A DNA stretch of 64,000 bases from a virus. This document shows positions 1-64,000 of the stretch, piece after piece (position 1 is the stretch's first letter; each line of letters opens with the position of its first letter). Under the pieces are notes generated by a model. That model was not told the DNA's origin, did not search any database, and saw only the letters and a program-made list of their open reading frames with translations. A program made the position numbers and the translations under genes. The stretch is taken from IMG/VR virus record IMGVR_UViG_3300014720_000002, one strand, 5' to 3'.

Positions 1-2160
1 CTGACTGGTTCATCGCCGAAATTTAGTCTGGTCCAGCGAAACCTCCTGTCGAAGGATGTGGACTACGTGGGGCGGGGCACCATCGGCGTTGATCCCGACC
101 TGGGTATGGACGAGGTCGGCATCCCGGACGAGATGGCCTGGAAGCTCTACGCGCCGTTCATCCAGCGGCGGCTGGTCCGGGCTGGCATGTCGCCGGAGCA
201 GGCGGTCAAGCAGATCAAGGACCGGACCAAGGAAGCGGAGAAGATGATGGACGGCGAGATGGCGGAACGCCCGGTGATGTATTCTCGCGCTCCGTCCTGG
301 CACAAGTTCAATTTTGTGGCGGGCATGCCCAAGCGGCGGACGGGCAGCACGATCATGGTGAATCCGTTCGTGACGACTGGCCTGAACGCCGACTTTGACG
401 GAGATTGCGGTAGATTTGTGTTGAGGATAAAGAGGAATGTGGAGACAGTGGCTGGCATAACATCACCTACCACTGAAATCAAGCTGAGCGAGCAAGTCAT
501 GCACATCGACCAGATGCCCCGCATCGAGGACACCGCGGTCGAGAAGTCTGCGCGCGTGACCGAATGGGATGTCCCCGCTGGCACGCAGCTTTACGCGATT
601 GACCTCAAGACCGGACAGCACGCCTGGGCGGATGTCACCAAGGTCAGCCTCCATCGCAACCTGGTGGCTTACACCGTCCAGCTTGCCTGCGGTGAGATGC
701 TGGTCGTCAGCGAGGACCACAGCGTCATCACCTACAACCCGGCGACTGGCGCGCTGGAGAAGACCAAGCCGGCCGATGGGGTCGGTCAGTTCGTTCCGCG
801 CGCCACGCGCATGTCCACGGCCAAGCCCATTGAGCAGGTGATCGCCAGCCGGGAGGGGCATGAGTGGAAGTTGAAGCTGACCCGTGATGTGGGCGTGTTC
901 CTGGGGCTGCTGGCGGGAGATGGTTGCATGATGGGTGACCATGTTCTGGCCCTTTACGGCACTGGATTTAAGGCCGCCAACCGCGCCAAGTTCACGGAGG
1001 TGGTGCAGTCGGGAGCACTGCCTTACGGACAGCATGTGGGCGAGCTTTCATGGGTGGCGGACAGCTTGGGCGGAGGTTCTGGGCTGCGCGAGCGTAGCCA
1101 GGTCGGCAACACCGCCTGGTTCAGCCGCTGGCTGCAGGATCACATCGGACACGGCGCGCTGAACAAGCGCGTGCCGGCCTTCTCCCTGCAGGCCGGGCCG
1201 GAACACCTCATGGGCGTTCTGGATGGGCTGCTGTCCTCGGACGGATCGGTGTCGGTCAGCCGGGCTAAAAAGAAGCCGCAACTGCTGGTGAACTTCAGCA
1301 CTTCCAGCCCAGACCTCGGGCTGAGCATCCAGGAAGTCTGTCGGCTGCTTGGTGTGGCGACGCACGTCACGCCCTACAAGTCACCCACCAGCGGCAAGGA
1401 CGCCTGGATCATCACACTGTCCACCGTGGGGTTGAAGAGCCTGGTCGCGGAGCGCCAGTTCACGCTCACCCACCCGGAGAAGAACCGCATCCTGCAGGAA
1501 CACATCGATGAGGTCAGCACGAACCGGGGTGGTGATGTGGTGCCTTATCCGCTGCACCTGCACAAGTTGATGCAGGCTGCGCATGTGGATCACACGGGCG
1601 GCAAGAAGAAACCCAGCGGCAAGACCGACTTCGGCTCGCTCGACCAGTGGAAGATGCACGGGGTGTGGTCGCGCGGCGCTGCCTTGCAGTGGATGGATGC
1701 TTACCTAAAGACCACCACCGGTATCATGAACCCCGAGCCGTTCATGCAGTATCGCTCGCTGATGGCGGACCGGTCGCTGCGCTGGGAGCGGGTGGAGAAG
1801 GCCGACCGGATGCACGATCCGATGGACATGTGGGACGTGACCATCCCTGGACCTTACACGTTTGCCACGTCGTCCGGCCTGTTCGTGCAGGATACCGTCG
1901 CCGTCCACCTCCCCATCATGGACGCGACGGTGAGCGACGCGAAGAACAAGCTGATGCCCTCCAAGATGCTGCTCAGCCCCAAGGACCGCGACAAGGTGGT
2001 GCCGGGGCTGAAGCAGGAGCAGATCCTCGGACTGCACAACGCCCAGGCTCGCCCCGCCCTGGCCAAGCACGTCTTCCCGGATGAGCGCAGCGCCATGATG
2101 GCCATCCGGGCGGGCAAGGTGCGGATGAGCGACGAGATCGAGATCACAAGTCCGGCTTGA
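1..2160 (+). CDS. rpoC: Phage multisubunit RNA polymerase beta' subunit, N-terminal half (5' truncated by window edge), intein-containing
   Basis: Frame is open from base 1 (LTGSSPKFSLVQRNLLSKDVDYVGRGTI, cf. RQNLLGKRVDYSGRSVI). It contains RAPSWHK (cf. RAPTLHR) and NADFDGD. After the intein it reads TVAVHLP...MLLSP...QEQILGL (cf. QMAVHVP...ILSP...QDVVLGL). Confidence 0.95.
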   Translation: MTGSSPKFSLVQRNLLSKDVDYVGRGTIGVDPDLGMDEVGIPDEMAWKLYAPFIQRRLVRAGMSPEQAVKQIKDRTKEAEKMMDGEMAERPVMYSRAPSWHKFNFVAGMPKRRTGSTIMVNPFVTTGLNADFDGDCGRFVLRIKRNVETVAGITSPTTEIKLSEQVMHIDQMPRIEDTAVEKSARVTEWDVPAGTQLYAIDLKTGQHAWADVTKVSLHRNLVAYTVQLACGEMLVVSEDHSVITYNPATGALEKTKPADGVGQFVPRATRMSTAKPIEQVIASREGHEWKLKLTRDVGVFLGLLAGDGCMMGDHVLALYGTGFKAANRAKFTEVVQSGALPYGQHVGELSWVADSLGGGSGLRERSQVGNTAWFSRWLQDHIGHGALNKRVPAFSLQAGPEHLMGVLDGLLSSDGSVSVSRAKKKPQLLVNFSTSSPDLGLSIQEVCRLLGVATHVTPYKSPTSGKDAWIITLSTVGLKSLVAERQFTLTHPEKNRILQEHIDEVSTNRGGDVVPYPLHLHKLMQAAHVDHTGGKKKPSGKTDFGSLDQWKMHGVWSRGAALQWMDAYLKTTTGIMNPEPFMQYRSLMADRSLRWERVEKADRMHDPMDMWDVTIPGPYTFATSSGLFVQDTVAVHLPIMDATVSDAKNKLMPSKMLLSPKDRDKVVPGLKQEQILGLHNAQARPALAKHVFPDERSAMMAIRAGKVRMSDEIEITSPA
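406..1893 (+). mobile_element. Intein (496 aa) with LAGLIDADG homing endonuclease, inserted right after NADFDGD
   Basis: Starts at Cys (TGC 406). Block B is VVSEDHSV. Endonuclease blocks are VFLGLLAGDG and VLDGLLSSDG. Block F/G is MWDVTIPGPYTFATSSGLFVQD|T. Removing it restores NADFDGD-TVAVHLP. Confidence 0.92.
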
Positions 2161-2855
2161 CAACGGCGAGGTTGCTCCCAAGCTGGCCGGGCATGACTCC
2201 AGATGATGCGGCTGACATCTTCACGGATCGCTGCGAAGGCGGCGCCTGGAGGGACAATGACACCTGTGATTTCTGTGGCGGCTGCCGGCCGTCCATCGCG
2301 CTGGCCGCCATCAAGGCGGGTGCGACGGTGAGCCCCACGGATAAGAGCTACAAACGCTACGTGGAGGGCGGCGATGTGCGCGTGCCCAGTTGCGGCGGCA
2401 AGCTCTACCTGAACCACTTCAGCGAAGCCCAGGCACTGGAGTTCGTGCGGCTGGACGTGACGGGCCAGATGCGGGTGGCACATCCTGGCTACTTCTACTC
2501 CAAGCTGGCCTTCGGACGTTACAAGGACTCTATCCAGGCGTTGCTGGCCGAGTTGTGCCCAGGTGACAACGCAGAGTCGCCGGTGACTCAGCCCGTCGCA
2601 CCCAAGCCGCCGGAACCCACCCGCACTCCCGGCTCACCGCCGGATGGCATGACCTCCCGCGTGCATGTGCTGCCGCTGGATGACCTGCAGTTCCACGCCG
2701 CCTCTGACCTCTGCTGGTGTCGGCCTACGTTCCTCCCGTCCGGGGTGATCTGCCATCACGCACTGGACGGTCGCGAGGCGGCTGAACGACAGCACGGCTT
2801 TGGCACTGGACGCGGCTGGCTCAAGCAGATCGAATACGTGCCTCTCCCAACATGA
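2157..2855 (+). CDS. Hypothetical protein with two small Cys/His-rich modules joined by a Pro-rich linker
   Basis: N-part has CDFCGG...PTDKSYK...KLYLNH; C-part has HVLPLDDLQFH...CWCRP...CHHALDGRE. TTG start overlaps the previous stop, and ATG 2193 is an alternative start. Confidence 0.6.
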   Translation: MTTARLLPSWPGMTPDDAADIFTDRCEGGAWRDNDTCDFCGGCRPSIALAAIKAGATVSPTDKSYKRYVEGGDVRVPSCGGKLYLNHFSEAQALEFVRLDVTGQMRVAHPGYFYSKLAFGRYKDSIQALLAELCPGDNAESPVTQPVAPKPPEPTRTPGSPPDGMTSRVHVLPLDDLQFHAASDLCWCRPTFLPSGVICHHALDGREAAERQHGFGTGRGWLKQIEYVPLPT

Positions 2856-3154
2856 ATGCACCCAAAGGTTGTCTCCGTCTGATTCCGGCCCTCGCTGGCG
2901 CAGCCGCGCTGGCCATCATCCCGCTGCTGCTCATCCTGATGGCGTGTCGCGCCGACATGCCGCGCGCCAAGGACGGACAGGGCGTGGAGTTCGTCTGCAT
3001 CAGCAAAGCCATTCCCGGCACACCGGACAAGCCGGGCACTGCGGACTTGTGGCAGAAGGTCGGTGAGACCGGCACCAATCACCCCGTCTATCTGCGCCTG
3101 CTGCAGACGGACCCCAGCCAGCCGTCCATGTTCACCCGAGTATCTCAACCATGA
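2852..3154 (+). CDS. Small putative lipoprotein (o-spanin-like candidate)
   Basis: Basic N-terminus and hydrophobic stretch ending in lipobox-like LMA-C. 100 aa and Pro-rich. ATGA overlaps on both sides. Confidence 0.5.
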   Translation: MNAPKGCLRLIPALAGAAALAIIPLLLILMACRADMPRAKDGQGVEFVCISKAIPGTPDKPGTADLWQKVGETGTNHPVYLRLLQTDPSQPSMFTRVSQP

Positions 3155-4951: not shown

Positions 4952-5014
4952 AGCGACTCGCCGGCCAGGTGCTTTGCGAATTGCGCGGCAACCGATGGTG
5001 CGTTACACACAGGC

Positions 5015-5686: not shown

Positions 5687-5802
5687 CATACCGGACGAAC
5701 AGTATTTCGCCGGCTTTGTGTTTCATGCCCTGCACAGGAGCCCTTCAGCGGCACACCAAGCTGGTTTCTTCGTGCAAGCAAGGGGGCGCAGGGCGTTGAC
5801 GC

Positions 5803-6597: not shown

Positions 6598-6599
6598 AC

Positions 6600-12489: not shown

Positions 12490-12501
12490 CCCGCAACCTT
12501 G

Positions 12502-12532
12502 GCTTGTCTTGACGCCGGTGTTCAGGCACCTT
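12502..12532 (+). promoter_or_regulatory. Putative promoter GC-TTGTCT-N17-CACCTT
   Basis: Immediately upstream of the PAS gene. Same GCTTGTCT as at 32847. Confidence 0.4.
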
Positions 12533-12540
12533 CCCGGCAA

Positions 12541-13245
12541 ATGCCTGACGCCGGCGTCTCCCTTTTTGCAGCAGCTTTCGGATTGCAGCTTGTGCTGGGC
12601 TTGTCGCTAGTGATCCAACTGCTGGCCTGCTGGTGGTGCTGGCGCATGGTTTCCATCCGTGAGGGCGCCCGGCGGATTGGCTGGTTTCTGCTGGGTCTCG
12701 GGCTGGGCTTGATGGCGGTGCGCCGTGGCGCCACGCTGTTCAACCTGGCCCTGGAGGACACTGAGTGGGTATCCGACCACTTCTACCTGCTCACCTCCAT
12801 CCTGCTAGGATCGGCCGTCTATCTGCTGCGCCGTGGCTTCCAGGAGGAACTGGACCAGTGGCGCGAACTGGCTGAACAGCAGCCGACGATGGTGTGGATG
12901 GCCGGCGCCAACGGCGAGACCCTGTTCGTCAACCGGCACTACGCCAGCTACTCCGGCCTGACCACCAAGGACTGCTGGCACTGGGGCTGGCTGAACCTGA
13001 TCCACCCGGAGGACGTGGACCGCGTCACCAAGGCATGGCTGAGCAGCCTGAAGGACGGACAGCCGTTTGAGGTCCGGGAGCGCCTGCGGCGGTGTGACGG
13101 CACGTATCGCTGGCATCTCTGTCGCGCCTGGCCCATCAAGGACGGACGCGGCCGGGTGGTCCGGTGGTATGGCAGCAACACGGACGTGCACGATTTTCAG
13201 GAGGCGACCAGCTTCTTCACTGGAGGGAAAGACACACCGTCATGA
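12541..13245 (+). CDS. Membrane-anchored PAS/PAC domain protein without kinase domain
   Basis: Three hydrophobic helices, then a PAS fold: PTMVWMA...LFVNRHY...WLNLIHPEDVDRV...FEVRERLRRCDGTYRWHLCRAWPIKDGRGRVVRWYGSNTDV. Confidence 0.88.
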   Translation: MPDAGVSLFAAAFGLQLVLGLSLVIQLLACWWCWRMVSIREGARRIGWFLLGLGLGLMAVRRGATLFNLALEDTEWVSDHFYLLTSILLGSAVYLLRRGFQEELDQWRELAEQQPTMVWMAGANGETLFVNRHYASYSGLTTKDCWHWGWLNLIHPEDVDRVTKAWLSSLKDGQPFEVRERLRRCDGTYRWHLCRAWPIKDGRGRVVRWYGSNTDVHDFQEATSFFTGGKDTPS

Positions 13246-13727
13246 GCATGAACGATGAAGATCTGAAAAAGGCGTTGGGGCATCTGAAGGACGAGATCCG
13301 GACGCTGCGTTCGCGCGCTGACACCATGGTGGCGTCAGGCGACGCGCAGTATCGAGGCGTCGCCGATGAACTGCGCAAGCTGCAGGACTCGCTGGACCTC
13401 TGCATGAAGGAGGTCAAGGAACTGCCCCGGGTCATGGAGGTGGTGCTGCGCATCAAGAACGCGCTGTCAGGCCCGGAGGATGGTTCGGCCGACGGCTTCT
13501 TCTCCAAGGTGCGTCGCCTGCGGGAAGACCTGGATGCGCTGGTCACCAAAGTCAACACCGCCCAGCCCACGCACATGTTCATCACGCGTGACTCCAAGGA
13601 ATGGACGGAGATGACCCAGACCGTCAAGGAACTCGACAAGATCCGCCATCAGCAGATCGGAGCCATTGCCGCCGCCTCCACCATAGGCGGCCTGTTGGGC
13701 TTTGGCCTCAGCTTCCTCTTCAAGTGA
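13242..13727 (+). CDS. Coiled-coil protein with C-terminal transmembrane anchor
   Basis: Heptad-rich body ending in IGAIAAASTIGGLLGFGLSFLFK. ATGA overlap with the PAS gene. Confidence 0.65.
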   Translation: MSMNDEDLKKALGHLKDEIRTLRSRADTMVASGDAQYRGVADELRKLQDSLDLCMKEVKELPRVMEVVLRIKNALSGPEDGSADGFFSKVRRLREDLDALVTKVNTAQPTHMFITRDSKEWTEMTQTVKELDKIRHQQIGAIAAASTIGGLLGFGLSFLFK

Positions 13728-14239
13728 GCAGCAGCCCCAACACCGCCTACCTGCTGAGAGCCGCCAACGACCTGGCTAGAGACCTGGGGGTCTGCGCGCC
13801 CATACGGGTGCTCATCGTGGATGACGACCAGGAGTCCTGCTTCAATCTGCGCCGGGTCATGGTGGAGTTGTCGGGTGTGGACTACCAGGTGGACATCGAG
13901 ATGGACCCGATGCGGGCCAAGTCGCGGATGGCCGAGCAGCTTTACGACATCTACATCGTGGACCAGAACCTGGGGCACGGTATCATGGGGCTGGACCTGA
14001 TTGCCGACCTGCAACGAGAGGGCTGGCACTCGCCCTTCATCATGGTGACCGGCAGTCCGCTGCATGACCGTCAGGCCATGGCGCAGGACTGCATGGCCTA
14101 CAAGCTGAAGTCGGAACTCACGTCGCCGGACATGATCGACCGGACCATACGCTTCTCGCTCAAGAACTTCTGGACCCGGGAATGCGCGGGTCACTGCAAA
14201 CATGAAGAACCAAAGTCCCCAAGCCTATCTCCGGCGTAA
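13724..14239 (+). CDS. Stand-alone response-regulator receiver (REC) protein
   Basis: RVLIVDDD acidic pocket, YDIYIVDQNLG (phospho-Asp position), PFIMVTG, AYKLK. GTGA overlap. Confidence 0.88.
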   Translation: MSSSPNTAYLLRAANDLARDLGVCAPIRVLIVDDDQESCFNLRRVMVELSGVDYQVDIEMDPMRAKSRMAEQLYDIYIVDQNLGHGIMGLDLIADLQREGWHSPFIMVTGSPLHDRQAMAQDCMAYKLKSELTSPDMIDRTIRFSLKNFWTRECAGHCKHEEPKSPSLSPA

Positions 14240-14848: not shown

Positions 14849-14861
14849 TCCTCTCCCAGCC

Positions 14862-15131
14862 ATGGCGGTCTATGTGGACAACCAGCGGCTGCCGTTCCGG
14901 GGCATGCTGATGTCCCACCTGGTGGCTGACACCGAAGCCGAGCTTCATGCGATGGCCGGCCATCTCGGCCTGCGCCGCAACTGGTTCCAGAACAATCCGC
15001 GCGGCACGCCCCACTATGATGTCTGCCAGGCCACTCGGTTGAAGGCCCTGCAGGCGGGCGTGTTGCCCGTGGACCGGTCCAGACTGGTGGCCGTCATCCG
15101 CCGGCTGCGCGAACAACGGAGGTCCGCGTGA
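14862..15131 (+). CDS. DUF4031-family protein
   Basis: MAVYVD...SHLVADTEAELHAMA...WFQ...PHYDV...RLKALQAG. Confidence 0.75.
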   Translation: MAVYVDNQRLPFRGMLMSHLVADTEAELHAMAGHLGLRRNWFQNNPRGTPHYDVCQATRLKALQAGVLPVDRSRLVAVIRRLREQRRSA

Positions 15132-40505: not shown

Positions 40506-40544
40506 GCTTGACGCCAGGCTGCCAGACACGTTGACTTGAACCCG
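40506..40544 (+). promoter_or_regulatory. Putative promoter GCTTGACGC-N19-ACTTGAACCCG
   Basis: Near copy of the 11148 element, in the intergenic gap upstream of the spike gene. Confidence 0.45.
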
Positions 40545-40547
40545 CAC

Positions 40548-42554
40548 ATGAACTCCAAAACCCGGCAGAGCAACATCCGGCCTGGCGTGGTCATCGGCAC
40601 ACGGCTGCCGGGGCAGGTGGTCGAGGTGAAGATGGAGGGCGATGGCGAGGTGGTGCGCTGCGTGTGGGCGGCGGGCATCATGTGTGGCCTGCTGGGCTTC
40701 CGGCTGACCCACATTCCCACCATCAACACCCGCGTGCTGGTCCTGCATTCCGGCATGGAGCACGACTTCATCATCGGCACACTGCCCGCCTTGATCGTGG
40801 ATGGTGTCCAGCCTGATCGACGGGTGACTGGCAATGGCGCCGCCGACTACACGCGCACCGAACCCTTCACCGCCCGGCTGGACCCAGAGGAGGCCGGCTA
40901 TCTGGACCATCGTCCGCCGGTGGATCTGGTTGAAGGCGAGATTGACCTGTCCAACCTGCAGGGTGTCGGGCTGACGCTGCTGCGCCGGCTGGTGTCGCTG
41001 CAGGCCGGCGACCTGGCCCGGGTGGAGTGTCACCTGCACGACGACATGGTCCGGATCATCAGCGACGCCTTCAAGCACTACACCGCGTTCGGGGAGCACA
41101 GCATCACCAACGACGGCGGCCGTCTTAATGTGGTCTGGCATGGCACCAGCCGGGAGCACGAGGCGATGGGCCGGATGCGGGAGAACGATCCGCTGGTGAA
41201 TCTCAAGGACGGTGACACCGTGGACCAGACGGATGTGGATCCGGAAAAGGATGATGGTCGCTGGCGCTTCAGCCAGTATGTCGGCTGGCTGGGCAATTTC
41301 GTGAACATGTTTGTCACGGACCCGGTGAACCAGATCGGCCGGCTGGCTGAGGACGCGTTCCGCTCGGGCAAGGCGCGCGTGCATGTGGGCAACGACGGCG
41401 CCATCCTTCTGCAGTCGGTCAGCGACATCGTGCTGGAGAAGGTGGTCCGCATTCCGGTGCCCGTGCCGCTGCGGCGCGAGGACAGCGGTGACGGCAACCG
41501 CACGGACGACCCGGCGGCCAACTACGAGTTCCTCAAGGCCTGGCAGCCCTCCGACCAGAACAACGTGTTCGAGATGGCCTTCCAGTTGCGCGAGTATGCC
41601 CGCTGGCTGTCCGCCACCCACAGCCTCGCCCGGTTCCACCAGTTGAACCGGGAGTGGAAGGTGCCCAGCGAATCACAGACTCCGGCCCCGTCGCTGGGCG
41701 CCGATGAGGTGGACCGCAAGCAGGCCAACCTGCCCACGGCGTCCGCCAGCGTGGCGGCATGGCGGCTGGCCTACTCGGCCATCCGGATCTTCCGTGATGG
41801 CTCCATCCAGACTGTGGATGCCTACGGCAACAGCACAACAACCACCAAGACGGGTGTTCTATTCGACACGCCCCGGGACTTCACCTTCGTGGCGGGAGGC
41901 TCGTTCAATGTCCTGGCCGCGCGCGACATCAACCTGGTGGCGCAGAAGGATGTGGGCATCACCGCCGCCAAGGGGGCGGTGCGGGTGAAGGCGGAGACGG
42001 CCCTGCAGATGTTCGTCAAAACTGGCCACGCCGTCATCGAGACCACCGGCACCTACCTGCTCAAGCTGATCGGCGCGTTCAAGATCGGCACGCGCATGGA
42101 CGTGTCGAAGGAAGGTGACATGATCCTGCGCGGCACGCTGCACGCCGAGACCGCCTACGTTCAGGGCGATGTCATCGCGCGCTACATGGCCCATGCGACG
42201 CCGCTGGCTGGACCGTGGAACCACTACAACCATGTCGGCATCTCTGGCCCGCCGCCTATGCCAGTTGGACAGCCGGTCCAGGACGAGTTCAAGTTTCCCG
42301 CCAGCCACCCCGGAGAGGCGCTTTACGAACCCTACGGCCAGCAGATGCTTCGGCGCGGTGAACTGGGCGGAACTACAGCCTGGAACCTGGCGGACAACGC
42401 CGTGGAAGGAAAGGGTGCACCCTGGCCGGGCAGCAATCAATGGAAGCAGGCTGATGGTGGCGACGCCCTCAACACGCCTTCGACCGAAGCGGCACCGGCC
42501 GCCAAACCTCAACCCTTGACCAGCGCGCCCGTCGTGGTGCGCTCACCTGCATGA
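40548..42554 (+). CDS. Baseplate central spike (gp5/VgrG-C-like)
   Basis: N-terminal OB-fold pattern (GVVIG...VVEVK...PTINTRVLVL...FIIGTLP) and beta-helix repeats (DFTFVAGGSFNVLAARDINLVAQKDVGITA). Confidence 0.65.
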   Translation: MNSKTRQSNIRPGVVIGTRLPGQVVEVKMEGDGEVVRCVWAAGIMCGLLGFRLTHIPTINTRVLVLHSGMEHDFIIGTLPALIVDGVQPDRRVTGNGAADYTRTEPFTARLDPEEAGYLDHRPPVDLVEGEIDLSNLQGVGLTLLRRLVSLQAGDLARVECHLHDDMVRIISDAFKHYTAFGEHSITNDGGRLNVVWHGTSREHEAMGRMRENDPLVNLKDGDTVDQTDVDPEKDDGRWRFSQYVGWLGNFVNMFVTDPVNQIGRLAEDAFRSGKARVHVGNDGAILLQSVSDIVLEKVVRIPVPVPLRREDSGDGNRTDDPAANYEFLKAWQPSDQNNVFEMAFQLREYARWLSATHSLARFHQLNREWKVPSESQTPAPSLGADEVDRKQANLPTASASVAAWRLAYSAIRIFRDGSIQTVDAYGNSTTTTKTGVLFDTPRDFTFVAGGSFNVLAARDINLVAQKDVGITAAKGAVRVKAETALQMFVKTGHAVIETTGTYLLKLIGAFKIGTRMDVSKEGDMILRGTLHAETAYVQGDVIARYMAHATPLAGPWNHYNHVGISGPPPMPVGQPVQDEFKFPASHPGEALYEPYGQQMLRRGELGGTTAWNLADNAVEGKGAPWPGSNQWKQADGGDALNTPSTEAAPAAKPQPLTSAPVVVRSPA

Positions 42555-51393: not shown

Positions 51394-51424
51394 CTTGAAA
51401 GCCTGGCTTAATTGTGCATCCTGT
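51394..51424 (+). promoter_or_regulatory. Putative promoter C-TTGAAA-N16-CATCCT
   Basis: Intergenic gap directly upstream of the sigma gene. GCATCCTGT is shared with 32871-32879. Confidence 0.45.
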
Positions 51425-51431
51425 GTCTGCC

Positions 51432-52139
51432 ATGACCGACACCAATACCATTGATACGGCCTATCAGGCATGGCAGGCCGACCCGCGGCCGGAGACGCTC
51501 AACCAGGTGGTGACGCACCTCAAGCCCACCATCGAATACGCGGTGGCATCGGTGGGAGCAGCCAAGAATCCGGTGGTCCAGGCCAAGGCCCGTCTGGTGG
51601 CGGCTGAGGCCGTGGAGAAATTTGATCCCACCAATGTCAGCAAGGCCAGCCTGCCCACGTTCGTGGCGTCGCAGCTTCGCCAGGTGAGCCGTCTCTCCCG
51701 GGAGAGTGCGTTTCCCATCAAGGTGCCGGAGCGAATGCAGATGGATCTCTACCGGGTCAGCCGGGAGCGGAGCCGGCTGACCGAGTCCATGGGTCGCGAG
51801 CCTGACATGCTGGAGTTGTCCGACGCCCTGCGCATGCCTATGAAGCGGCTGCAGAAGGTCTTCAAGGCGCAGGTGGCGATGCCGACGGAGAGCGCTTATG
51901 GAGAAGTGGAGCAGGAGGGACCAGACCACGATCAGGAAGCGCTGGAGTATGTCATGCACGGCTCTGATCACACCGACCGCCGTGTGCTTGAGTTGAAGCT
52001 CGGGCTGGGCGACCAGCCGCCCATGCCGCCGCACCAGATCGCCAAGGTGCTCAATCTCACCCCCACGCAGCTTAGCCGGCGCTCCATGCGGCTGGCGGCG
52101 CGCATCAACAGTATCCGGGAGAGCCTGGGTCAGATCTGA
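51432..52139 (+). CDS. Sigma70-family RNA polymerase sigma factor (regions 2, 3, 4)
   Basis: AVEKFDPT...LPTFVASQLRQ (region 2), MGREPDMLELSDALRMPMKRL (region 3), DRRVLELKLGLGDQPP...QIAKVLNLT (region 4 HTH). Confidence 0.85.
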   Translation: MTDTNTIDTAYQAWQADPRPETLNQVVTHLKPTIEYAVASVGAAKNPVVQAKARLVAAEAVEKFDPTNVSKASLPTFVASQLRQVSRLSRESAFPIKVPERMQMDLYRVSRERSRLTESMGREPDMLELSDALRMPMKRLQKVFKAQVAMPTESAYGEVEQEGPDHDQEALEYVMHGSDHTDRRVLELKLGLGDQPPMPPHQIAKVLNLTPTQLSRRSMRLAARINSIRESLGQI

Positions 52140-52570: not shown

Positions 52571-52940
52571 GGCGGCCGGACCACGGCTGGACTTCACGGA
52601 TGTGCGGCGGGATTTCGCCTGCACCGTGCAGAACGCACTGACGCACGTCGGCACGGACTACGGGACGGACAGGGTGTATCCCGAGCGCGGCACCGACCTG
52701 CTCCGGCTGGCCACCTCCGGCACGCTGGTCAACCGGCTGTGGGCCGATCAACGGGCAGGGCTGGCGGCTCTTCGAGTGCTCGCCTTCACCCGGCAGACCG
52801 ACAGTCCAGCCAACCAGGACCAGTTGCAGGAATTCAAACTTCGGGCCGTTCAGATGCGTGATGGGTTTGCCGAGTTCCTCGCGCAGGCCGTCAGCAGCCG
52901 GGGTGAACGGGCCGGCATGATGGCCGACCTCAAGGCATGA
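52545..52940 (+). CDS. Baseplate wedge protein, gp25-like
   Basis: ALTHVGTDYGTDRVYPERGTDL motif, size, and position before the baseplate J-like gene. Confidence 0.6.
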   Translation: MRGTVIKFEAAGPRLDFTDVRRDFACTVQNALTHVGTDYGTDRVYPERGTDLLRLATSGTLVNRLWADQRAGLAALRVLAFTRQTDSPANQDQLQEFKLRAVQMRDGFAEFLAQAVSSRGERAGMMADLKA

Positions 52941-54916
52941 CAACTTCCAAATTCAACCTGGCTGATTACCTTCCTGGTCCAGAGGTCATGGACCCTGCCG
53001 CCATTCAGGACTCCCGCGCGCGGCTGGAGCAGTGCGTCAAAGCCTGGTGGCCGGAACTGGACACTCGTCCCGGCTCAGTGTTCGGCGATCTGCATCTCGC
53101 GCCGCTGGCCACGCTGCTGGCGTCGTTGGAGGATGCTCTCCGTCAACGCGACCGCGACACCGATCTCGATGCCATCTCTCGTGGATTGGTGACTGACCCT
53201 GATCTGGCTCGCACCTTCCTTGCCAATTTCGGTGTTACCGAAACTTCCGCCACCAAGTCCAACGGACTGGCTCGTCTGGTGTTCGCCAAGAACCAGGATG
53301 TGAGTCTTGATCCGGACATGCGTTTTCAGGCCGGCAACAGCTTGTTCAACGTGGTCACGAAGGATGGCGCGGCGTTGGTCATCCGGCAGGCCGGAACCGC
53401 TGGTGCGCGCTACGTGCTGACCGCTGAGGCTGGGCAGTTCGTGGTCTATGTGCCGCTGCAGGGAACGCCCGGCTCCTCGGTCAAAGCGGGAACTGCCATG
53501 ACCTATGGACAGGCACTGGATGGGTTGGTGGGCATCACCGCCGCTGGTGACTTTGATTCCGGGGTGCCTGCCTTGAGCCTGCCGCAGATGGCCATTCGCG
53601 CGCGTGCCCTGTTCACGGCGGGCGGTCTGGGCACACGGCGTGGCGCGGTGGGTTTGCTGCGCGCTCACTTTCCCGGCCTGGTGTCGGCTGGCGCTGTAAT
53701 CACGGGTGATGTCGAGATGTCCAGGGACACCGACAACATTCTCGGGCTGGCTCAGGGGGCCATGGATGTGCTGGTGCGTGGCAGCCGCGAATTCCAGAAG
53801 GCCGCCGGCAAGGTAACGCTGACTTACGACCTGGCGCGGGGCGCATGGGCTGGGCGGTTGGACACCCCCGTGACGCCAGCCTTCTTCGACCTGGCTGCTG
53901 GCGTGTTCAAGGTGAGCCGGTTCAACAACGACCGCGCGCAGCGCCGGGTATTGATGCGCTCCCTGCATCCCCGCCAGGACTCCGCCGGCTTGGCCTACTC
54001 GCGGCACCAGCAGCTTGGTCTGCTGGTGGATGATCTAGACGTGGGCAACAGCACACCAGCCAGCATCACGCCGCCGGTGCAGATTTCCGGCACGCCGGCG
54101 GTGCTGCTCGTAAGCGGTGAGTATGGCGGGCACGTCTTTTCCAACTCCTCGCGCCGCGACCTGATGCTACAGGTGGAGCGTGTGGCTGCTGATGCCACCT
54201 ATGGCGAAGTCCTGGTGGTGTCGGTCAAGGACCGCCTGTCAGGCGAGTCGGGAGAGATCACGCTGGCGGTCAACTCGCCCAGCACGCCGCTATTCGCCGT
54301 GCCGGTGGCGTCGGGCACCTACACGGAATTTTTCAACGGCCTGGCACTCCGTCTGACCCCGGCTGACAACATCTATGTCAGCAGCCGGTTTGTGGGCTGC
54401 TCCTACCAACTGTCGTTCCAAGGCCGCAGTGCTGAGTTCGAGGTGGGCTACCTCTACGATCCAACGCTGCCGCAGGTGGAGGCACTGCTGGAGCAGGACG
54501 ACTATCGTCCGGCGGCCATGTCGGTGCTTGCCAGAGGATTTGCCATCTGTCATGTAAGCGCCTTGGCGATCTCGTATCAGGTGCCGTTCGGCAAGAACAT
54601 CGATCTGACTGCGGCACGGCAGCGCATGGCCGACTACCTGAACGGGCTGGCTTGGCCGGAGAGCTACGACAGCAACCGGATCGCCGCCATCATGCTGGAG
54701 GCCGGAGCCAGCGCGGTCAGCGCCGTCGCACCGCAAGGCATCATCTATCCGAGCCTGGCCACGGTGTTCGTGGACAAGCAGGGCGTGGAGACCAGCATCC
54801 CACGCATCCCAACCCGCTCGCTGCTGCCTCCGGCAGGAGTGCCGGGACTGGGTGCGCGCAACCTGGCCTACCTGATCGAACCCACCGCCATCACGTTCAA
54901 TGCCACTGCCCGGTAA
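52937..54916 (+). CDS. Baseplate J-like wedge protein (gp6-like)
   Basis: PELDTRPGSVFGDL, LANFGV...ATKSNGLARLVF, TRRGAVGLL, VITGDVEMSRD. Confidence 0.7.
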   Translation: MTTSKFNLADYLPGPEVMDPAAIQDSRARLEQCVKAWWPELDTRPGSVFGDLHLAPLATLLASLEDALRQRDRDTDLDAISRGLVTDPDLARTFLANFGVTETSATKSNGLARLVFAKNQDVSLDPDMRFQAGNSLFNVVTKDGAALVIRQAGTAGARYVLTAEAGQFVVYVPLQGTPGSSVKAGTAMTYGQALDGLVGITAAGDFDSGVPALSLPQMAIRARALFTAGGLGTRRGAVGLLRAHFPGLVSAGAVITGDVEMSRDTDNILGLAQGAMDVLVRGSREFQKAAGKVTLTYDLARGAWAGRLDTPVTPAFFDLAAGVFKVSRFNNDRAQRRVLMRSLHPRQDSAGLAYSRHQQLGLLVDDLDVGNSTPASITPPVQISGTPAVLLVSGEYGGHVFSNSSRRDLMLQVERVAADATYGEVLVVSVKDRLSGESGEITLAVNSPSTPLFAVPVASGTYTEFFNGLALRLTPADNIYVSSRFVGCSYQLSFQGRSAEFEVGYLYDPTLPQVEALLEQDDYRPAAMSVLARGFAICHVSALAISYQVPFGKNIDLTAARQRMADYLNGLAWPESYDSNRIAAIMLEAGASAVSAVAPQGIIYPSLATVFVDKQGVETSIPRIPTRSLLPPAGVPGLGARNLAYLIEPTAITFNATAR

Positions 54917-57049: not shown

Positions 57050-57051
57050 GC

Positions 57052-60000
57052 ATGAGCGCAAACCCTGATCTCAGCCAAGTGCGGCATGTGCAGTCTGGCG
57101 ATCCGGTGGCCAGTGCGCCGACGTCGCAGCCCACACGCGCCCTAGAACTGCAGATCCAGCAGTTGCGCGAACTTATCTCGCAGCAGACAGCCGGCACGCT
57201 CAGCAAGCTCGTCATTCCCGGCGTGAAGCTGGCGGACAACGTCCTGCCTTACGACGTGGTGCACTACAACGGCGCCACCGGCAGGTATGAGCGAGCAGTG
57301 GCTGGTGTGACTTTTGTTGAGGACCACTTCTCCACCAACCCGTCTTCCTTGTCATTCGGGCTGGTGTTGTCCCGCAACGGCGGGCTGGGTGACGTGATGG
57401 TGGGCGGCTGGATGAACTGGCCGAACTCAGGTGTCCGCGCTGCGATGCTGGAAACGGGCCAGGTGTTCCTGCCGGGCGTGCCTTACTTCTTGTCCGCCGT
57501 CGAGCCTGGCCGGATTACCCGGCAAGCACCAGCGTTACGCATCCAGATCCTGATGGCCACGGACGACCATCTGGTGCTGATGCCAGCTTTCACCACGCCG
57601 GAAAGCATCGAGAGCAATTTCCGAAAGGCCGTCGGCATGCGTCCGGTTGGTTCCCTGCGCCAGCATGGCGTGGACAACGACCGTCAGGTCATTGTCGGTT
57701 TCGACGGCGTGGAACTGGCCGATGCCTCCACTAACGAATGGGTGCACACCCAGGACAGCATCACCGAGACCATCCGCAAATACGGCTGGGTGCTGGCCGA
57801 CGCAAGTGTCGCCATGCAGCCAGCGGCGCCGCTCTATCTCATGATCGAGGTGGATGCCACCACCGGCGCGATTCGCATTTTCTCCGCCGACACCCTGGCG
57901 GAGTTGTCCTCGGGCGGACCCGGCACCTTCAATCCGGCGACCTTGACGCTGGACAACAACGTCAATCACGCCTACGCCGTGCTGGACCGGCAGGGCAACA
58001 CGCTGGGAACGCTGACATTCCGTTTCCTCACCAGCAATGCGTCACGCAAGCGCCGCGCGGTGTTCAAGTTCCCGGACAGCTTCCAGGGATGGAAGCTGAC
58101 CTGGCCTCCCATACAACCTTCCGCCACGGCGGTTATCGGTGCCGCTGGAACCACCACGGCGGGCAAGCTGATCCGGGTGGATGTCAAGGAAGGTGGCATC
58201 GGTTATGTGACACCGCCGACCGTCGTGATTTCCGGTGGCGGTGGGGCCGGCGCCACGGCGGTTGCCCTGCTAAACGAGCATGGCGTAATCTCCGAGGTGG
58301 TGGTCACCAACGCCGGTGCCAACTACAGCAGCACGCCGACCGTTACCTTCGATTCCAAGGCGATCTCGGTGCGTGTGGTCAATGGCGGATATGGTGCGAC
58401 GCTGGCTGCTGCGGTGTCCGGTGGACAGTTGACCGGCGTGACAGTTACGGCGGGCGGTTCTGATTACCTGCAGGCGCCTTCGGTTGAGGTGGTGGATGTC
58501 ACCGGCAGCGGAGCGCGCGTCGTCACGGAAGTGGCCAACGGACAGGTCATCAGTGCCAGGATTGTGTCGGCTGGTGCCGGTTATTCCGGCAGTCCTGTGC
58601 TGCGGGTGCGGCCCAGCGGCAATGCCGGCTATCGCACGGGCGAAGCTGACGTGGTGTTCTCGTCTGGCAATGCTGGTGCCGCAGCCGTGCTGGATCCAGT
58701 CGGCATCTTCCGGGTGGAAGTGCTTTGTGGCGGCAACCACTACACCAGCGCGGCGGCCATTGTGGTCAGCGGCGGAGGGGGCAGTGGCGCCGACATCCGA
58801 CCGATCGTAGAGAGCGGGCGCATCGTGGATGCTGTGGTGCTGAACCCTGGCACTGGCTTCACCGCTGAACCGACCTTGACGGTCACCGACAGCGCCGGCA
58901 ACGCCCACGGGGCCAAGTTTAAGGCGGTGATAGGAGCGTCCGTCCGAGGTGTCACCCTGAGCACGGGCGGCACCGGATTGACTGAACTGCCGACGGCCAA
59001 CGTCGGGTCGCGCGTGGATGAGCTTTCAATCGAGGATGGCGGGGCCGGCTACACAGTGGCGCCAGCAGTCAGCTTCAGCGGAGGGCAAGGCTCCGGTGCA
59101 GCGGCGACCGCCTATCTTGGACCGGCCATCAACCAGATCGTCATCCTTAACCGCGGATCGGGTTACACCCAGGCGCAGATCGCGGCAATGACCATCAGCC
59201 TGTCCTACAACCCCGGCAGCGATGCGTTGCTGGTGCCGGTGTTCGAGCAGGTCAGCGGTGACAATTACCGGCTGAAAGGCGTGGAGATCATCCAGGCTGG
59301 TCACAGCTTTACGTCGGGTCCGCCGACGCTCAGCTTCAGCGCCGCTCCGGCGGGCGGCGGTGGCGTGGCGGCCAGCATCGCAGCGGTGCTCAGCAACGGC
59401 GGCTCAGTGGTGGCCCTCAAAAAGACCGCCGCCGGAAGCGGGTATGTGACTCCTCCAGATGTGACCATGCCGCCGCCCCCTTCGGGCAGCGGTGTGCGCG
59501 CGGCGCGGGCCACGGCCAAACTGGGCGGCTTCGGCGCCCGGCTGGATGTCACCAGGTCAGGGCACGGCGGCTTTGTGGTGCCAACGCCTGATCCGGCGCC
59601 GCCGACCGGCAACTTCCTGCAGATCTTCGACTACCACGCCGATCACTTGGAACCGGCTGGCGCGAAATTTGCCCGTCCTCCGGGCGGGGTGCTCTACTAC
59701 AACTTCAAGGCCGACCCAGGCGCCCGGGAGCGCTATCCGGCGGTGCCGGTGGACAAATGCCTGTTCGTGCTGAACGGCGTGGAGGCGCACACGGCGGTGC
59801 TCAACGAGGCCTCCGGCAAGTTCCGTGATCCGAACGCCGACGTGGGGCTGTCCCGCAAGACCATCTTTTGGTGCAGCAACTACTTGCACGGCACGCCCTG
59901 GGACTTCGCCTGGCGCCAGCTTGCCTTCCGACCCGGATCAGGCGGCCGGGATCATGTGGTGGCTGGCACCAACCGCAACAGCGATCCGGAACTGGTCTGG

Positions 60001-60633
60001 AAGTGGTGGGAGCATCTGTTCGACATCGAGCCACAGTTGAACCGGGGCTGGCTGCACATCGCGCGAGCGAGCCGGTTCTTCCAGAGCGGCCGGGTCACTG
60101 CCCTGGGTGCCATGGCCCCGCTGCGGTTAATCGATGTGGCGACCGGTGTGGATGTCAGCCAGGACGGTCGGTTAATGAACGGTCAGTTGATGCTCACACT
60201 GGACAACCAGACCAATCTCATGGGCGGCACTGGCAGCCAGATCGAGATGGCACGCTCGGGCGATCTGCAGGTCATCTACATCAACGAAACTGGCCGCAAC
60301 GTGATGGTGACGTCCATCCTGCTGCAGGTGGTGCACCAGACCCAGTCTTCGCCGGCGGACGTGACCAAGGCCGCGCGGGTGGTGATCGGGACGGCGGAGA
60401 ATCTCTACGCCGACCTGGTTGGTGAGACCGTGGCCGCAGATGGGTCGGTTGTCCGTGGCGTGTCAGCCCGCTTGTTCCAGGGCGGACAGGTCAAGGAGTT
60501 GTTTCCTGACAGCCATAAGCCGGTGCCGGCGCTGGCGCCAGGCCAGAAGATTTACCTGCGGGTCGAGCAGCCGGCCGGTGCACCGATTATCAGCCAGGTG
60601 GTGGTGGCCAAGCTCAAAGGGCACGTCCTCTAA
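57052..60633 (+). CDS. Tail fibre/baseplate appendage with about 12 GxGY-x3-P beta-repeats
   Basis: N-terminal VRHVQSGDPV...PTRALE attachment motif and tandem repeats such as EGGIGYVTPPTVVISGGGGAGATAVA. Confidence 0.7.
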   Translation: MSANPDLSQVRHVQSGDPVASAPTSQPTRALELQIQQLRELISQQTAGTLSKLVIPGVKLADNVLPYDVVHYNGATGRYERAVAGVTFVEDHFSTNPSSLSFGLVLSRNGGLGDVMVGGWMNWPNSGVRAAMLETGQVFLPGVPYFLSAVEPGRITRQAPALRIQILMATDDHLVLMPAFTTPESIESNFRKAVGMRPVGSLRQHGVDNDRQVIVGFDGVELADASTNEWVHTQDSITETIRKYGWVLADASVAMQPAAPLYLMIEVDATTGAIRIFSADTLAELSSGGPGTFNPATLTLDNNVNHAYAVLDRQGNTLGTLTFRFLTSNASRKRRAVFKFPDSFQGWKLTWPPIQPSATAVIGAAGTTTAGKLIRVDVKEGGIGYVTPPTVVISGGGGAGATAVALLNEHGVISEVVVTNAGANYSSTPTVTFDSKAISVRVVNGGYGATLAAAVSGGQLTGVTVTAGGSDYLQAPSVEVVDVTGSGARVVTEVANGQVISARIVSAGAGYSGSPVLRVRPSGNAGYRTGEADVVFSSGNAGAAAVLDPVGIFRVEVLCGGNHYTSAAAIVVSGGGGSGADIRPIVESGRIVDAVVLNPGTGFTAEPTLTVTDSAGNAHGAKFKAVIGASVRGVTLSTGGTGLTELPTANVGSRVDELSIEDGGAGYTVAPAVSFSGGQGSGAAATAYLGPAINQIVILNRGSGYTQAQIAAMTISLSYNPGSDALLVPVFEQVSGDNYRLKGVEIIQAGHSFTSGPPTLSFSAAPAGGGGVAASIAAVLSNGGSVVALKKTAAGSGYVTPPDVTMPPPPSGSGVRAARATAKLGGFGARLDVTRSGHGGFVVPTPDPAPPTGNFLQIFDYHADHLEPAGAKFARPPGGVLYYNFKADPGARERYPAVPVDKCLFVLNGVEAHTAVLNEASGKFRDPNADVGLSRKTIFWCSNYLHGTPWDFAWRQLAFRPGSGGRDHVVAGTNRNSDPELVWKWWEHLFDIEPQLNRGWLHIARASRFFQSGRVTALGAMAPLRLIDVATGVDVSQDGRLMNGQLMLTLDNQTNLMGGTGSQIEMARSGDLQVIYINETGRNVMVTSILLQVVHQTQSSPADVTKAARVVIGTAENLYADLVGETVAADGSVVRGVSARLFQGGQVKELFPDSHKPVPALAPGQKIYLRVEQPAGAPIISQVVVAKLKGHVL

Positions 60634-60635
60634 CC

Positions 60636-62053: not shown

Positions 62054-62103
62054 CCAGATAGTGATCAGCAAGCAGCAACCACGCAGTATAACTAGAAAAA
62101 CTT

Positions 62104-63405
62104 ATGGCTAACGTCATTCGCATCAAGCGCCGTAGCAGCGGCGCAACAGGCGCCCCCTCATCGCTCGCGAGCGGTGAGTTGGCGGTCAACGAGATGGATG
62201 GAAAGCTCTACTACGGCAAGGGCAACAACGGCTCGGGCGTCGCCACGAGCATTGTCGTCCTGGGCACCGAGGGATCCATCAACGGCAACGATACCATCAC
62301 CCTCTCCGGCGATGCGTCGGGTTCCGGCACCACCTCGATCGCGGTCACGCTCGCCAACAGCGGCGTGTCGGCCGGCAGCTACACCAAGGTCACCGTCGAT
62401 GCCAAAGGTCGTGTCACCTCGGGCACCACGTTGTCTGATTCGGACATCCCGACGCTGACGGCCTCCAAGATCAGCGACTTCGACACCCAGGTCCGCACCA
62501 GCCGCCTCGACCAGATGGCGTCGCCGACGGCCTCGGTCTCGATGAACAGCCAGCGCATCACCAGCCTGGCCACCCCGACCAGTGCCAACGACGCCGCCAC
62601 CAAGGCGTATGTCGATGCCACCAAGCAGGGGCTCGACATCAAGGCGTCGGTTCGCGTGACCACCCAGGCGGCCCTGCCGGCGGTCACCTACGACAACGGC
62701 ACGTCCGGGGTCGGCGCCACGCTGACGGCGGATGCCAACGGCGACATCAATGATGAACTCATCGACGGTCTCAGCGACCTCGTGGTAGGCGACCGTATCC
62801 TGGTCAAAAATCAAGCGGCCGGTCTGCAGAACGGCATCTATGATGTCACCGCGGTCGGTGATGGCAGCAATCCGTTCTTGCTCACCCGCACCACCGACGC
62901 GGATACGGGTGGTGCGTCCGGCGACATCACCGGCGGCATGTTCACCTTCGTCGAGGAAGGCACTGCCAGTGCCGACTCGGGCTGGGTGCTCACCACCAAC
63001 GGCGCGCTCACCATCGGCACCACGGCCCTGACCTTCGTCCAGTTCTCGGGCGCTGGTCAGATCACCGCTGGCGCGGCGCTCACCAAGACCGGCAACACGC
63101 TCGACGTGGCGGTGGACGGCTCGTCCATCGAAGTCAACTCGGATGCGCTGCGGGTCAAGGCTGGCGGCATCACCAACGCGATGCTGGCAGGTTCGATCGA
63201 CCTGACGGCCAAGGTCACGGGCGTCCTGCCGGTGGCCAACGGCGGCACCAACCTGTCCAGCTACACGGCGGGTGACCTGGTCTATGCCTCCGGCACCACC
63301 ACGCTCTCGAAGCTGGCGGCCGGCACGGCGGGCCAGGTGCTCGTCATGAACTCCGGCGCCACGGCGCCCGAGTGGGCTGACGGTCTCGATGGCGGGAGCT
63401 TCTAA
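62104..63405 (+). CDS. Tail fibre-like protein
   Basis: N-terminal IRIKRR...PSSLASGELAVNEMDGKLYYG, then ATKAYVD, DRILVKNQ...QNGIY, and C-terminal DGGSF. Confidence 0.75.
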   Translation: MANVIRIKRRSSGATGAPSSLASGELAVNEMDGKLYYGKGNNGSGVATSIVVLGTEGSINGNDTITLSGDASGSGTTSIAVTLANSGVSAGSYTKVTVDAKGRVTSGTTLSDSDIPTLTASKISDFDTQVRTSRLDQMASPTASVSMNSQRITSLATPTSANDAATKAYVDATKQGLDIKASVRVTTQAALPAVTYDNGTSGVGATLTADANGDINDELIDGLSDLVVGDRILVKNQAAGLQNGIYDVTAVGDGSNPFLLTRTTDADTGGASGDITGGMFTFVEEGTASADSGWVLTTNGALTIGTTALTFVQFSGAGQITAGAALTKTGNTLDVAVDGSSIEVNSDALRVKAGGITNAMLAGSIDLTAKVTGVLPVANGGTNLSSYTAGDLVYASGTTTLSKLAAGTAGQVLVMNSGATAPEWADGLDGGSF

Positions 63406-63427
63406 GCCCGGCCAAGTCTGTCGTAAC

Positions 63428-63473
63428 GACCCGCCGGGCATGCCTGTAACAGGGCTGTCCGGCGGGTCTTCTT
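63428..63473 (+). terminator. Putative intrinsic terminator
   Basis: 10-bp perfect outer stem GACCCGCCGG / CCGGCGGGTC with inner CCTG-TAA-CAGG, followed by TTCTT. Confidence 0.6.
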
Positions 63474-63483
63474 GAAACCGCCC

Positions 63484-64000
63484 ATGCCTATTGCGATCAA
63501 GCACAAGTCCAGCAGCACGGCCAGCGCCGTGCCGGCGGCCAACGACCTGGTGCTGCGCGAACTGGCGGTCAACACGACTGACGGAAAGCTCTTCATCAAG
63601 ACAGGGGCAGGAGGGGTGGTCACCTTCAGCAACGACAGCAACTCACCCAACCGGGTGCTGTTTGACAGCGACGATCCCGGTAGCGGCGAGGGTGTCAATA
63701 ACAACTTCTGGCTTAACACCACATCCAAGGATTTCTTTTACAAGTCCGGCGGGACCTGGACGCTGATTGCCAACCTTGGCGGCGGGGCGACTTTCGTGGA
63801 TGACGAACTGGTTGGCGTCGGGGACAACACGACCACGGTATTCAACCTGGACAGCGCGCCAGTTTCCGGAAGCGTCCATGTTTATGTGGGTGGTTTCCGG
63901 AAACTGGGCGGTGCTGGCAATGACTACACAATTTCTGGCGGCGAGATCACTTTCGCCACGGCGCCGGCAGACGGCGAGAACATCGTGGCGGATTACCGAA
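63484..64000 (+). CDS. Tail fibre-like protein (3' truncated by window edge)
   Basis: MPIAIKHKSSSTASAVPAANDLVLRELAVNTTDGKLFIK has the same N-module as 62104. The frame is open to the window end and is absent from the ORF track. Confidence 0.7.
   Translation, partial: MPIAIKHKSSSTASAVPAANDLVLRELAVNTTDGKLFIKTGAGGVVTFSNDSNSPNRVLFDSDDPGSGEGVNNNFWLNTTSKDFFYKSGGTWTLIANLGGGATFVDDELVGVGDNTTTVFNLDSAPVSGSVHVYVGGFRKLGGAGNDYTISGGEITFATAPADGENIVADYR

Follow-up and report, generated by a model that had tools for sequence, protein, structure and literature searches.

The stretch of DNA analyzed here, a window of 64,000 nucleotides, comprises bases 80,542-144,541 of the single-contig IMG/VR virus record IMGVR_UViG_3300014720_000002, a linear record of 167,647 bp that was estimated by CheckV to be 86% complete. 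It was found to belong to a contractile-tailed phage that encodes its own bacterial-type RNA polymerase together with a sigma factor, as the initial annotation had proposed. Three lines of evidence carried this result: Protein Data Bank (PDB) matches of beta', sequence and fold matches of the sigma factor, and the fold of the tail sheath. For the joint reading, namely that the window is the central part of an uncultivated myovirus of ~170-205 kb in the lineage of Salmonella phage Arash, with a polymerase core and sigma factor of its own that are proposed to be packaged in the particle, we estimate a probability of roughly three in four. The gene set itself is already known from Arash, which was cultured and published in 2023, and it also occurs in the Vibrio phages D69, D181 and D148; the lineage had been thought poorly described, and it is indeed barely studied. 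New relative to Arash are the division of the polymerase into five genes, three inteins, and a pyrophosphatase (InPase) domain fused to the N-terminal part of beta' (beta'N).

Both halves of beta' that had been predicted in the window were found, each carrying an intein of the LAGLIDADG type. The reading frame of beta'N, which enters the window from upstream, was open and free of stops over 1322 amino acids (aa). Its product consists of the InPase domain (PF18823, residues 52-187, E 1.4e-37), about 250 aa with no assigned domain, the beta' region, the intein and a C-extein. The InPase domain lies upstream of window base 1 (genome 78787-79350) and forms an in-frame N-terminal fusion with beta'N. 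The beta' region aligned with bacterial beta' (E. coli residues 179-465) with an E-value of 2e-35 in a phmmer search of the PDB, and ended in the catalytic motif NADFDGD. It includes the segment that aligns with the clamp helices of bacterial beta', where sigma region 2 docks. The protein stops about 90 residues beyond the catalytic motif, and Arash gp206 and the Vibrio D69 protein end at the same place. The second half, beta'C, matched bacterial beta' with an E-value of 3e-35 in the same kind of search and was 33% identical to Arash gp216. Its residues 25-325 aligned to residues 17-342 of cyanobacterial RpoC2, and residues 8-335 to residues 672-1024 of mycobacterial beta'. The catalytic motifs were intact, and the bridge helix and trigger loop were colinear with those of bacterial beta'.

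The beta subunit, which the initial annotation had advised looking for in the flanking contig, was found upstream of the window, encoded by three separate genes. The polymerase is therefore made up of five scattered genes: three beta pieces, beta'N and beta'C. No alpha homologue was found in our searches; omega was not searched for. A second polymerase set was not found in the record, where beta and beta' were each represented by a single catalytic gene. The same count was obtained for beta' in the genomes G001, G006 and G011 and in D69. G001 (IMGVR_UViG_3300044821_000131) is a complete uncultivated genome of 204,257 bp with terminal repeats and a GC content of 51%.

The three inteins sit at the most conserved spots of the enzyme, in the GSY-T/S region of beta (intein 3), directly after NADFDGD (intein 1) and in the trigger loop (intein 2). 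Inteins 2 and 3 were canonical, with an N-terminal Cys, a C-terminal Asn, and Hint and endonuclease domains; the junctions of intein 2 read GEPVTQGALN / C...CSN / TKHSGGG. Intein 1 begins with Cys721 and ends in ...FVQD, followed by Thr. It has the other hallmarks of an intein (N-terminal Cys, domains, an orthologue with an empty site), but its last residue is an Asp where Asn is canonical. Splicing-competent inteins ending in Asp or Gln exist. The boundaries of both inteins in the window were confirmed by empty sites in G001, whose beta'N reads GMDFDGD-TCNIHVP with no insert, and whose beta'C (617 aa) matched residues 1-322 and 709-1000 contiguously. Inteins had been implied when the initial annotation spoke of intein-free beta' halves; the InPase fusion, the division of beta over three genes and the absence of a portal gene had gone unnoticed.

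The gene that had been predicted to encode a sigma70-family factor lies among tail and baseplate genes. Its product matched Pfam Sigma70_r3 with an E-value of 6e-5 (23.5 bits, below the cut-off of 25.3) and NCBIfam TIGR02937 with 2.8e-4, also below threshold, and the Sigma70 r2 and r4 models gave no match to it. When it was compared with PDB sequences by phmmer, all 51 matches were sigma factors, the best being SigA (4e-7) over residues 61-222, corresponding to regions 2-4. An AlphaFold model (AF2, six orthologues) reached a pLDDT of 75. The top 50 PDB matches of this model in Foldseek were all sigma factors, with probability 1.00 and E-values from 1e-7 to 3e-5; the template-modelling scores were low because the domains differ in relative orientation. 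The predicted structure thus assigns the protein to the sigma fold. Over its full length it matched Arash gp10 (BLASTP 2e-16, 24% identity), and the G001 orthologue was 50% identical, in the same position and with the same neighbours. Orthologues were found in five of five further relatives, the D69 match being weak (E 8.5e-7, with one TGA in the frame), and in every relative examined the gene was kept in the tail/baseplate block.

Phage sigma factors normally act on the host polymerase, and according to reviews the jumbo phages that encode a polymerase lack sigma homologues. It could therefore be that the sigma factor found here redirects the core enzyme of the host, as T4 gp55 and SPO1 gp28/gp34 do, and that the phage polymerase starts with another factor or with none, as in phiKZ and AR9; the top sequence and fold matches of the protein, which were bacterial housekeeping and group-2 sigmas, would fit such a role. 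We consider this unlikely, although it is the alternative that fared best. Sigma and phage polymerase occurred together in all eight lineage genomes examined, the Arash virion holds sigma together with the polymerase (PMC10585845), and the part of beta' corresponding in alignments to the bacterial sigma-docking region is retained in the phage enzyme. A sigma factor working with the polymerase of its own phage is the reading we prefer.

The division into five pieces, the three inteins and the non-canonical Asp might also suggest that an enzyme is no longer formed from the polymerase genes, which would then be intein-ridden fragments carried along as selfish or decaying cargo. This is very unlikely. 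All pieces were intact open frames with the codon bias of the genome and intact catalytic motifs, and after removal of the inteins the exteins aligned end to end with bacterial subunits. Moreover, the polymerase orthologues were 54-63% identical in the complete genome G001 despite its different GC content.

The contractile tail was recognized from the sheath protein. Its AF2 model had a pLDDT of 90.2 and gave 94 PDB matches in Foldseek at E<=1e-3, with values down to 2e-11. The top matches were the sheaths of phage 812, DSY3957, Lin1278, AFP and Mu, and those of P1 and diffocin were among the further ones. This fold indicates that the tail is contractile. The sheath core, the last 500 residues, had 1,454 cluster-level homologues. 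Among 46 sheath homologues scanned, 12 contained the sheath family PF04984, and no family beyond two sheath families was matched. A profile of the homologues gave no match to PDB sequences, and the link to the PDB came from the fold search alone. Ahead of the core, an N-terminal extension of ~960 aa (window 35503-38379) carries Ig-like domains and F5/8 type C (discoidin, sugar-binding) domains (Pfam F5_F8_type_C). The homologues ranged from ~570 to 1850 aa, which suggests that the exterior of the sheath varies greatly.

The major capsid protein was 31% identical to Arash gp226 (tblastn, 2e-30), 28% to the proteins of the Vibrio phages D69, D181 and D148, and 67% to that of G001. It had been likened to the Bxz1 type rather than to the phiKZ or T4 types, and this was borne out. 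PF07068, the T4 gp23 type, gave no match in the capsid protein of the window. A profile of the capsid family aligned with the capsid proteins of Catera (species Bixzunavirus Bxz1), Myrna and Gordonia phage Stormageddon over 266 columns (hhalign, 96.3%, E 1.8e-9). In a tblastn search with an E limit of 10, 205 Mycobacterium phage records and one Mycolicibacterium record were matched at E-values of about 1. Among the matches listed, the Mycobacterium phages had genomes of ~150-165 kb and included Catera, Myrna and I3, with 93% of the query aligned to the annotated capsid protein. On this sequence evidence the protein is remotely homologous to the capsid proteins of the Bxz1 type (Ceeclamvirinae), at ~18% identity.

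A tree of beta' was calculated with IQ-TREE (LG+F+G4) from the region before NADFDGD, using 49 sequences and 247 columns, with three bacterial sequences (E. coli, Enterococcus and one Poribacteria). The record analyzed here (G000), G001 and two further contigs formed a group with an ultrafast bootstrap (UFBoot) value of 100. Twenty sequences, Arash and D69 among them, made up a broad Arash-like clade with moderate support (UFBoot 72), which joined the three bacterial sequences at 78. A phiKZ-like group and two groups with beta' of mReC-like size, recognized by size only, lay on another branch.

The mReC phages (Weinheimer and Aylward 2020, PMC7481178) resemble the phage described here in being uncultivated tailed phages, known from IMG/VR, whose polymerase is recognizable by cellular beta/beta' profiles, and at least one mReC contig listed in the supplement has beta' in separate pieces. 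That this phage is a member of mReC is nevertheless highly improbable. All mReC capsid proteins match T4 gp23 (PF07068/VOG11186) and the terminases match PF03237 (PMC7481178), whereas here the capsid protein matched PF05065 weakly and the terminase had no match. The mReC subunits (beta ~1000-1420 aa, beta' ~900-1210 aa) are encoded by undivided genes that mostly lie next to each other, and at least one contig has two sets (PMC7481178), in contrast to the single set in five scattered genes of this record. A true sigma factor, which is present here, was not found in the part of the mReC supplement that was accessible (PMC7481178). When the metagenome identifiers of 12 relatives were compared with the mReC tables, none occurred in them, and in the tree the beta' sequences of mReC-like size stood on a different branch. 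PF07068 gave no match on four mReC-like contigs, which are fragments of 8-33%, in a search that matched nowhere. The last alternative, a phiKZ/AR9-type (Chimalliviridae-like) jumbo phage, or else cellular DNA with a host rpoC mis-binned as viral, could draw on the split of beta and beta' as in phiKZ and on best PDB matches to cellular beta', but it can be dismissed in view of the single polymerase set, the sigma factor, the distant branch of the phiKZ-like sequences, the lack of any PhuZ tubulin (PF00091) match in four lineage genomes (three of them >=93% complete), and polymerase genes that lie among phage structural genes collinear with a complete 204-kb genome with terminal repeats. Branch, single set, absence of tubulin and capsid type together place the phage outside both phiKZ/AR9 and mReC, as had been supposed.

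The cultured relatives were limited to Salmonella phage Arash and the three Vibrio phages. Arash is a 180.8-kb "orphan" Salmonella myovirus (electron microscopy) with the proposed genus name 'Arashvirus' (OQ632216; PMC10585845). Its virions contain beta (gp206, the most abundant of all proteins), beta' (gp216) and sigma (gp10), all three ranking with the most abundant virion proteins (PMC10585845). The two phages have homologous capsid, terminase, sheath (gp236, tblastn 1e-22) and protease-like proteins and genomes of a similar size class. Beta and beta' are of the bacterial type in both (33-34% identity), with beta' cut at the same point, and the sigma gene occupies the same place among the tail genes. 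With these homologies and the grouping of beta' in the tree, we assign the phage to the Arash-like lineage. It does not belong to the genus 'Arashvirus': 11 of 216 open reading frames (ORFs) were shared, at a mean identity of 30% (range 24-38%), and there was no nucleotide similarity (no megablast match). Tight clustering with a described genus was accordingly not observed. Arash also differs in having two polymerase genes (beta+beta'N and beta'C; gp206 is the fusion, of 1525 aa) compared with five genes, three inteins and the InPase fusion here, and a GC content of 53% compared with 62%. No intein was found in gp206, the sole Arash polymerase gene scanned. Arash has a second sigma factor (gp196) and 21 tRNAs, neither of which was found in this window. 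The Vibrio phages D69, D181 and D148 (OZ195729 and others) have the same capsid family, a beta-beta'N fusion of 1527 aa, a separate beta'C and the weak sigma match. They differ in the two-gene polymerase layout of the Arash type, and their polymerase genes are annotated as hypothetical proteins. We found no paper describing these phages.

G001 was collinear with the record across the whole window, shared 56 of the 216 ORFs at a mean identity of 40%, and had the same five-gene polymerase layout. It differed in lacking an intein in beta'N, beta'C and the third beta piece. An intein related to that of the third beta piece of this phage was present in G001 right after the second beta piece (G001 46240-47010), indicating that related inteins have settled at different sites of the polymerase in G001 and in this phage. 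Another difference was a NUDIX domain at the position of the InPase domain in beta'N, suggesting that phosphohydrolase fusions to beta'N recur. By eye, a HAD-like stretch (IIAVDFDGV) and PQVT repeats were seen after the NUDIX domain.

The family extends well beyond these genomes. Capsid homologues numbered 494 at E<=1e-3 in a metagenome protein collection, on contigs of up to 208 kb. The beta'C pattern was found on 26 IMG/VR contigs, of which several measured 170-205 kb, and the same capsid family was present on other contigs of the polymerase clade. Polymerase layouts in the clade ranged from a single beta-beta' chain of ~2020-2040 aa (L060, L102) through beta+beta'N fusions to the five genes of this record, and in L105 and L090 an intein-bearing C-terminal part of beta was fused to beta'N. 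Two capsid homologues came from bins labelled Verrucomicrobiota, which is weak host evidence. Contigs of the lineage also occurred in metagenome-assembled genomes, CAYTFY010000008.1 (169,868 bp, Gemmatimonadaceae) and QMTB01000270.1 (Thermoplasmata). The latter two placements are probably binning artefacts and at best a weak hint of the host.

From these data the following working of the enzyme is proposed. The three inteins would splice out and the five chains would assemble into a core enzyme; the phage sigma factor would dock on the retained segment of the clamp-helix region and direct the core to phage promoters, which would make phage transcription independent of the host polymerase. By analogy with Arash, the holoenzyme would probably be made late, packed into the particle, injected with the DNA and used to transcribe the early genes. 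Late synthesis and packaging are suggested by the virion proteome of Arash and by the location of the sigma and beta'C genes among late structural genes. The fused InPase, or in G001 the NUDIX domain, would clear pyrophosphate released by RNA synthesis or act on nucleotides or RNA ends. Tentatively, and with rather less confidence than in the joint reading, we suggest a large global family of myoviruses of ~170-210 kb that possess a complete bacterial-type machinery for initiation, made up of beta, beta' and a factor of the sigma70 family (no alpha was found), whose holoenzyme injected from the virion would be the first sigma-dependent virion RNA polymerase; its subunits would have been freely fused or divided, have taken up inteins and have gained PPi/nucleotide hydrolase domains, on a branch beside, and not within, the bacterial polymerases.

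Several observations weigh against this interpretation. Packaging in the virion is known only for Arash, which shares few ORFs with this phage. No counterpart of the zinc-finger and zipper region, the first ~180 residues of bacterial beta', was recognizable in beta'N. Splicing of intein 1 is uncertain, given that its last residue is Asp in place of Asn. A conserved promoter motif was not found when intergenic DNA was analyzed by k-mer enrichment on crude gene calls. The tree, with three bacterial sequences, 247 columns and moderate support for the broad clade, does not decide between a position inside and one beside Bacteria. Finally, the record is 86% complete, so that absences are provisional.

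The coordinates of all features are given in Table 1.

Table 1. Features of the window and of the flanking parts of the record, with the evidence for each assignment
Feature	Position	Strand	Evidence or remark
beta'N gene, C-terminal 719 aa	window 1..2160	+	whole ORF genome 78787-82701, 1304 aa; Pfam Rpb1_2
Catalytic Mg-binding motif NADFDGD of beta'	window 385..405	+	translation checked
Intein 1, 496 aa, LAGLIDADG type	window 406..1893	+	Pfam Intein_splicing and LAGLIDADG_3; directly after NADFDGD
beta'N C-extein, 88 aa	window 1894..2160	+	aligns to bacterial beta' just past NADFDGD
PAS-domain protein, accessory	window 12499..13245	+	Pfam PAS_3, E 6.6e-16
Response-regulator receiver-domain protein, accessory	window 13601..14239	+	Pfam Response_reg, E 1.6e-9
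beta'C gene, 1000 aa with intein, ~615 aa without	window 15128..18130	+	Pfam Rpb1_5; bridge-helix/trigger-loop half of beta'
Intein 2, 385 aa, LAGLIDADG type	window 16097..17251	+	Pfam Hint and LAGLIDADG_3; trigger loop
Virion-module protein, 856 aa	window 20418..22988	+	tblastn: Arash structural protein gp218 9e-7, G001 9e-105
Head-maturation-protease-like protein	window 27684..29147	+	phrog_18299, E 2.7e-5; 38% identity to Arash virion protein gp222, 2e-35
Major capsid protein, 316 aa, HK97 class	window 31819..32769	+	PF05065 E 1.8e-4 and phrog_2522, both weak
Two neck/tail proteins	window 33606..34819	+	orthologues of Arash virion proteins gp233 and gp234 (tblastn 6e-13, 5e-10); same order in G001
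Tail sheath, 1459 aa	window 35503..39882	+	core is the last 500 aa (38380-39879); orthologue of Arash gp236
Tail tube candidate, 167 aa	window 39907..40410	+	position after sheath and size only; 41% identity in G001, no family match
Baseplate hub/spike candidate, 672 aa	window 40536..42554	+	weak DUF2345 (VgrG C-terminal), E 1.3e-3; 45% identity to G001
Sigma70-family factor, 241 aa, regions 2, 3 and 4	window 51414..52139	+	inside tail/baseplate gene block
Baseplate-wedge-like protein, 659 aa	window 52937..54916	+	phrog_6, E 1.2e-4; 36% identity to G001
Large virion protein, 1193 aa	window 57052..60633	+	tandem Ig-like repeats; several PHROGs, E down to 5e-38
Tail-fibre or decoration-like protein, 433 aa	window 62104..63405	+	phrog_30390 E 9e-67, phrog_2647, phrog_8745
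beta piece 1	genome 5330-6676
beta piece 2	genome 7625-8302		Rpb2_3 domain
beta piece 3	genome 20670-23837		Rpb2_6, E 9e-52; third intein C498...N866
Terminase	genome 154092-155942	minus	outside window; 25% identity to Arash, tblastn 3e-43; no family match

The GC content of the window was 62-64% throughout, and about 53 of its ~60 genes lay on the plus strand according to crude gene calls. No tRNAs or Rfam matches were found in the window by tRNA and Rfam scans, and megablast of 25 kb against 50,697 GenBank phage records gave no match. Searches with Pfam and PHROGs covered nearly all proteins of the window and left the majority of the structural proteins with no match; the baseplate- and fibre-like assignments are weakly supported. 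A complete head, neck and contractile tail module on one strand had been predicted. The capsid, protease-like and sheath genes and the predominance of the plus strand agree with this, but the module is not complete, since the terminase is encoded beyond the window, on the minus strand, and a portal gene, the orthologue of Arash gp204, was absent from the 86%-complete record. In G001 the portal is present at 23.8-25.6 kb, ahead of the part with which the present record starts to align. Two ORFs upstream of the protease (529 and 856 aa) were considered as portal candidates and dropped, the orthologue of the Arash portal being elsewhere in G001 and absent here; the 856-aa protein had no family, ESM Atlas or PHROG match.

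Some neighbours of the polymerase genes were also recorded. A 781-aa protein with weak matches to R2K-clade ATP-grasp proteins is encoded at genome 75868-78213, ~600 bp upstream of beta'N. A gene for a SleB-type cell-wall hydrolase (Hydrolase_2, genome 6615-7067) lies between beta pieces 1 and 2, and a DUF4031 protein (E 2.9e-25, window 14601-15131) is encoded directly upstream of beta'C, overlapping its start. The PAS and receiver-domain proteins are encoded between the two beta' genes. Such signal-sensing domains are unusual in a lytic-type phage.

Overviews describe large phages either as having diverged polymerases of their own that work with no sigma factor (phiKZ, AR9) or as equipped with sigma factors by which the host enzyme is taken over. 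The phage analyzed here and its relatives combine both, with a polymerase readily alignable to bacterial beta/beta' and a true sigma70-family factor. The lineage presents one enzyme in a range of natural forms, some fused, some split and some interrupted by inteins, and possibly a sigma-dependent packaged polymerase with a cultured model, Arash, in which it can be tested. With inteins in the catalytic motif and the trigger loop, protein splicing would be a precondition of infection.

The phiKZ/AR9 phages share with this phage a multisubunit polymerase in several pieces, and it is in this group that the transcription of early genes by a packaged enzyme has its precedent. They differ in having two polymerase sets, no sigma70 homologue, highly diverged subunits, a capsid of the phiKZ type and tubulin, compared with one set, a true sigma70-family factor and close alignment to bacterial beta' here. 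A phosphohydrolase domain joined to a polymerase piece is also on record, an HD domain in group 1 Bacillus jumbo phages (Iyer et al.). The phages Bxz1/Catera, Myrna and Stormageddon are related through the capsid, at ~18-20% identity and single-sequence E-values of about 1. No polymerase match to phages of the Bxz1 type was found, and the Mycobacterium matches of the beta query fell on the beta intein. The division of beta' resembles that of cyanobacteria and plastids (RpoC1/gamma and RpoC2) in being cut at nearly the same place, beta'C starting approximately where RpoC2 starts and beta'N corresponding approximately to gamma. The phage split probably arose independently of the cyanobacterial/plastid one; other members of the phage clade have beta and beta' as one chain of ~2040 aa.

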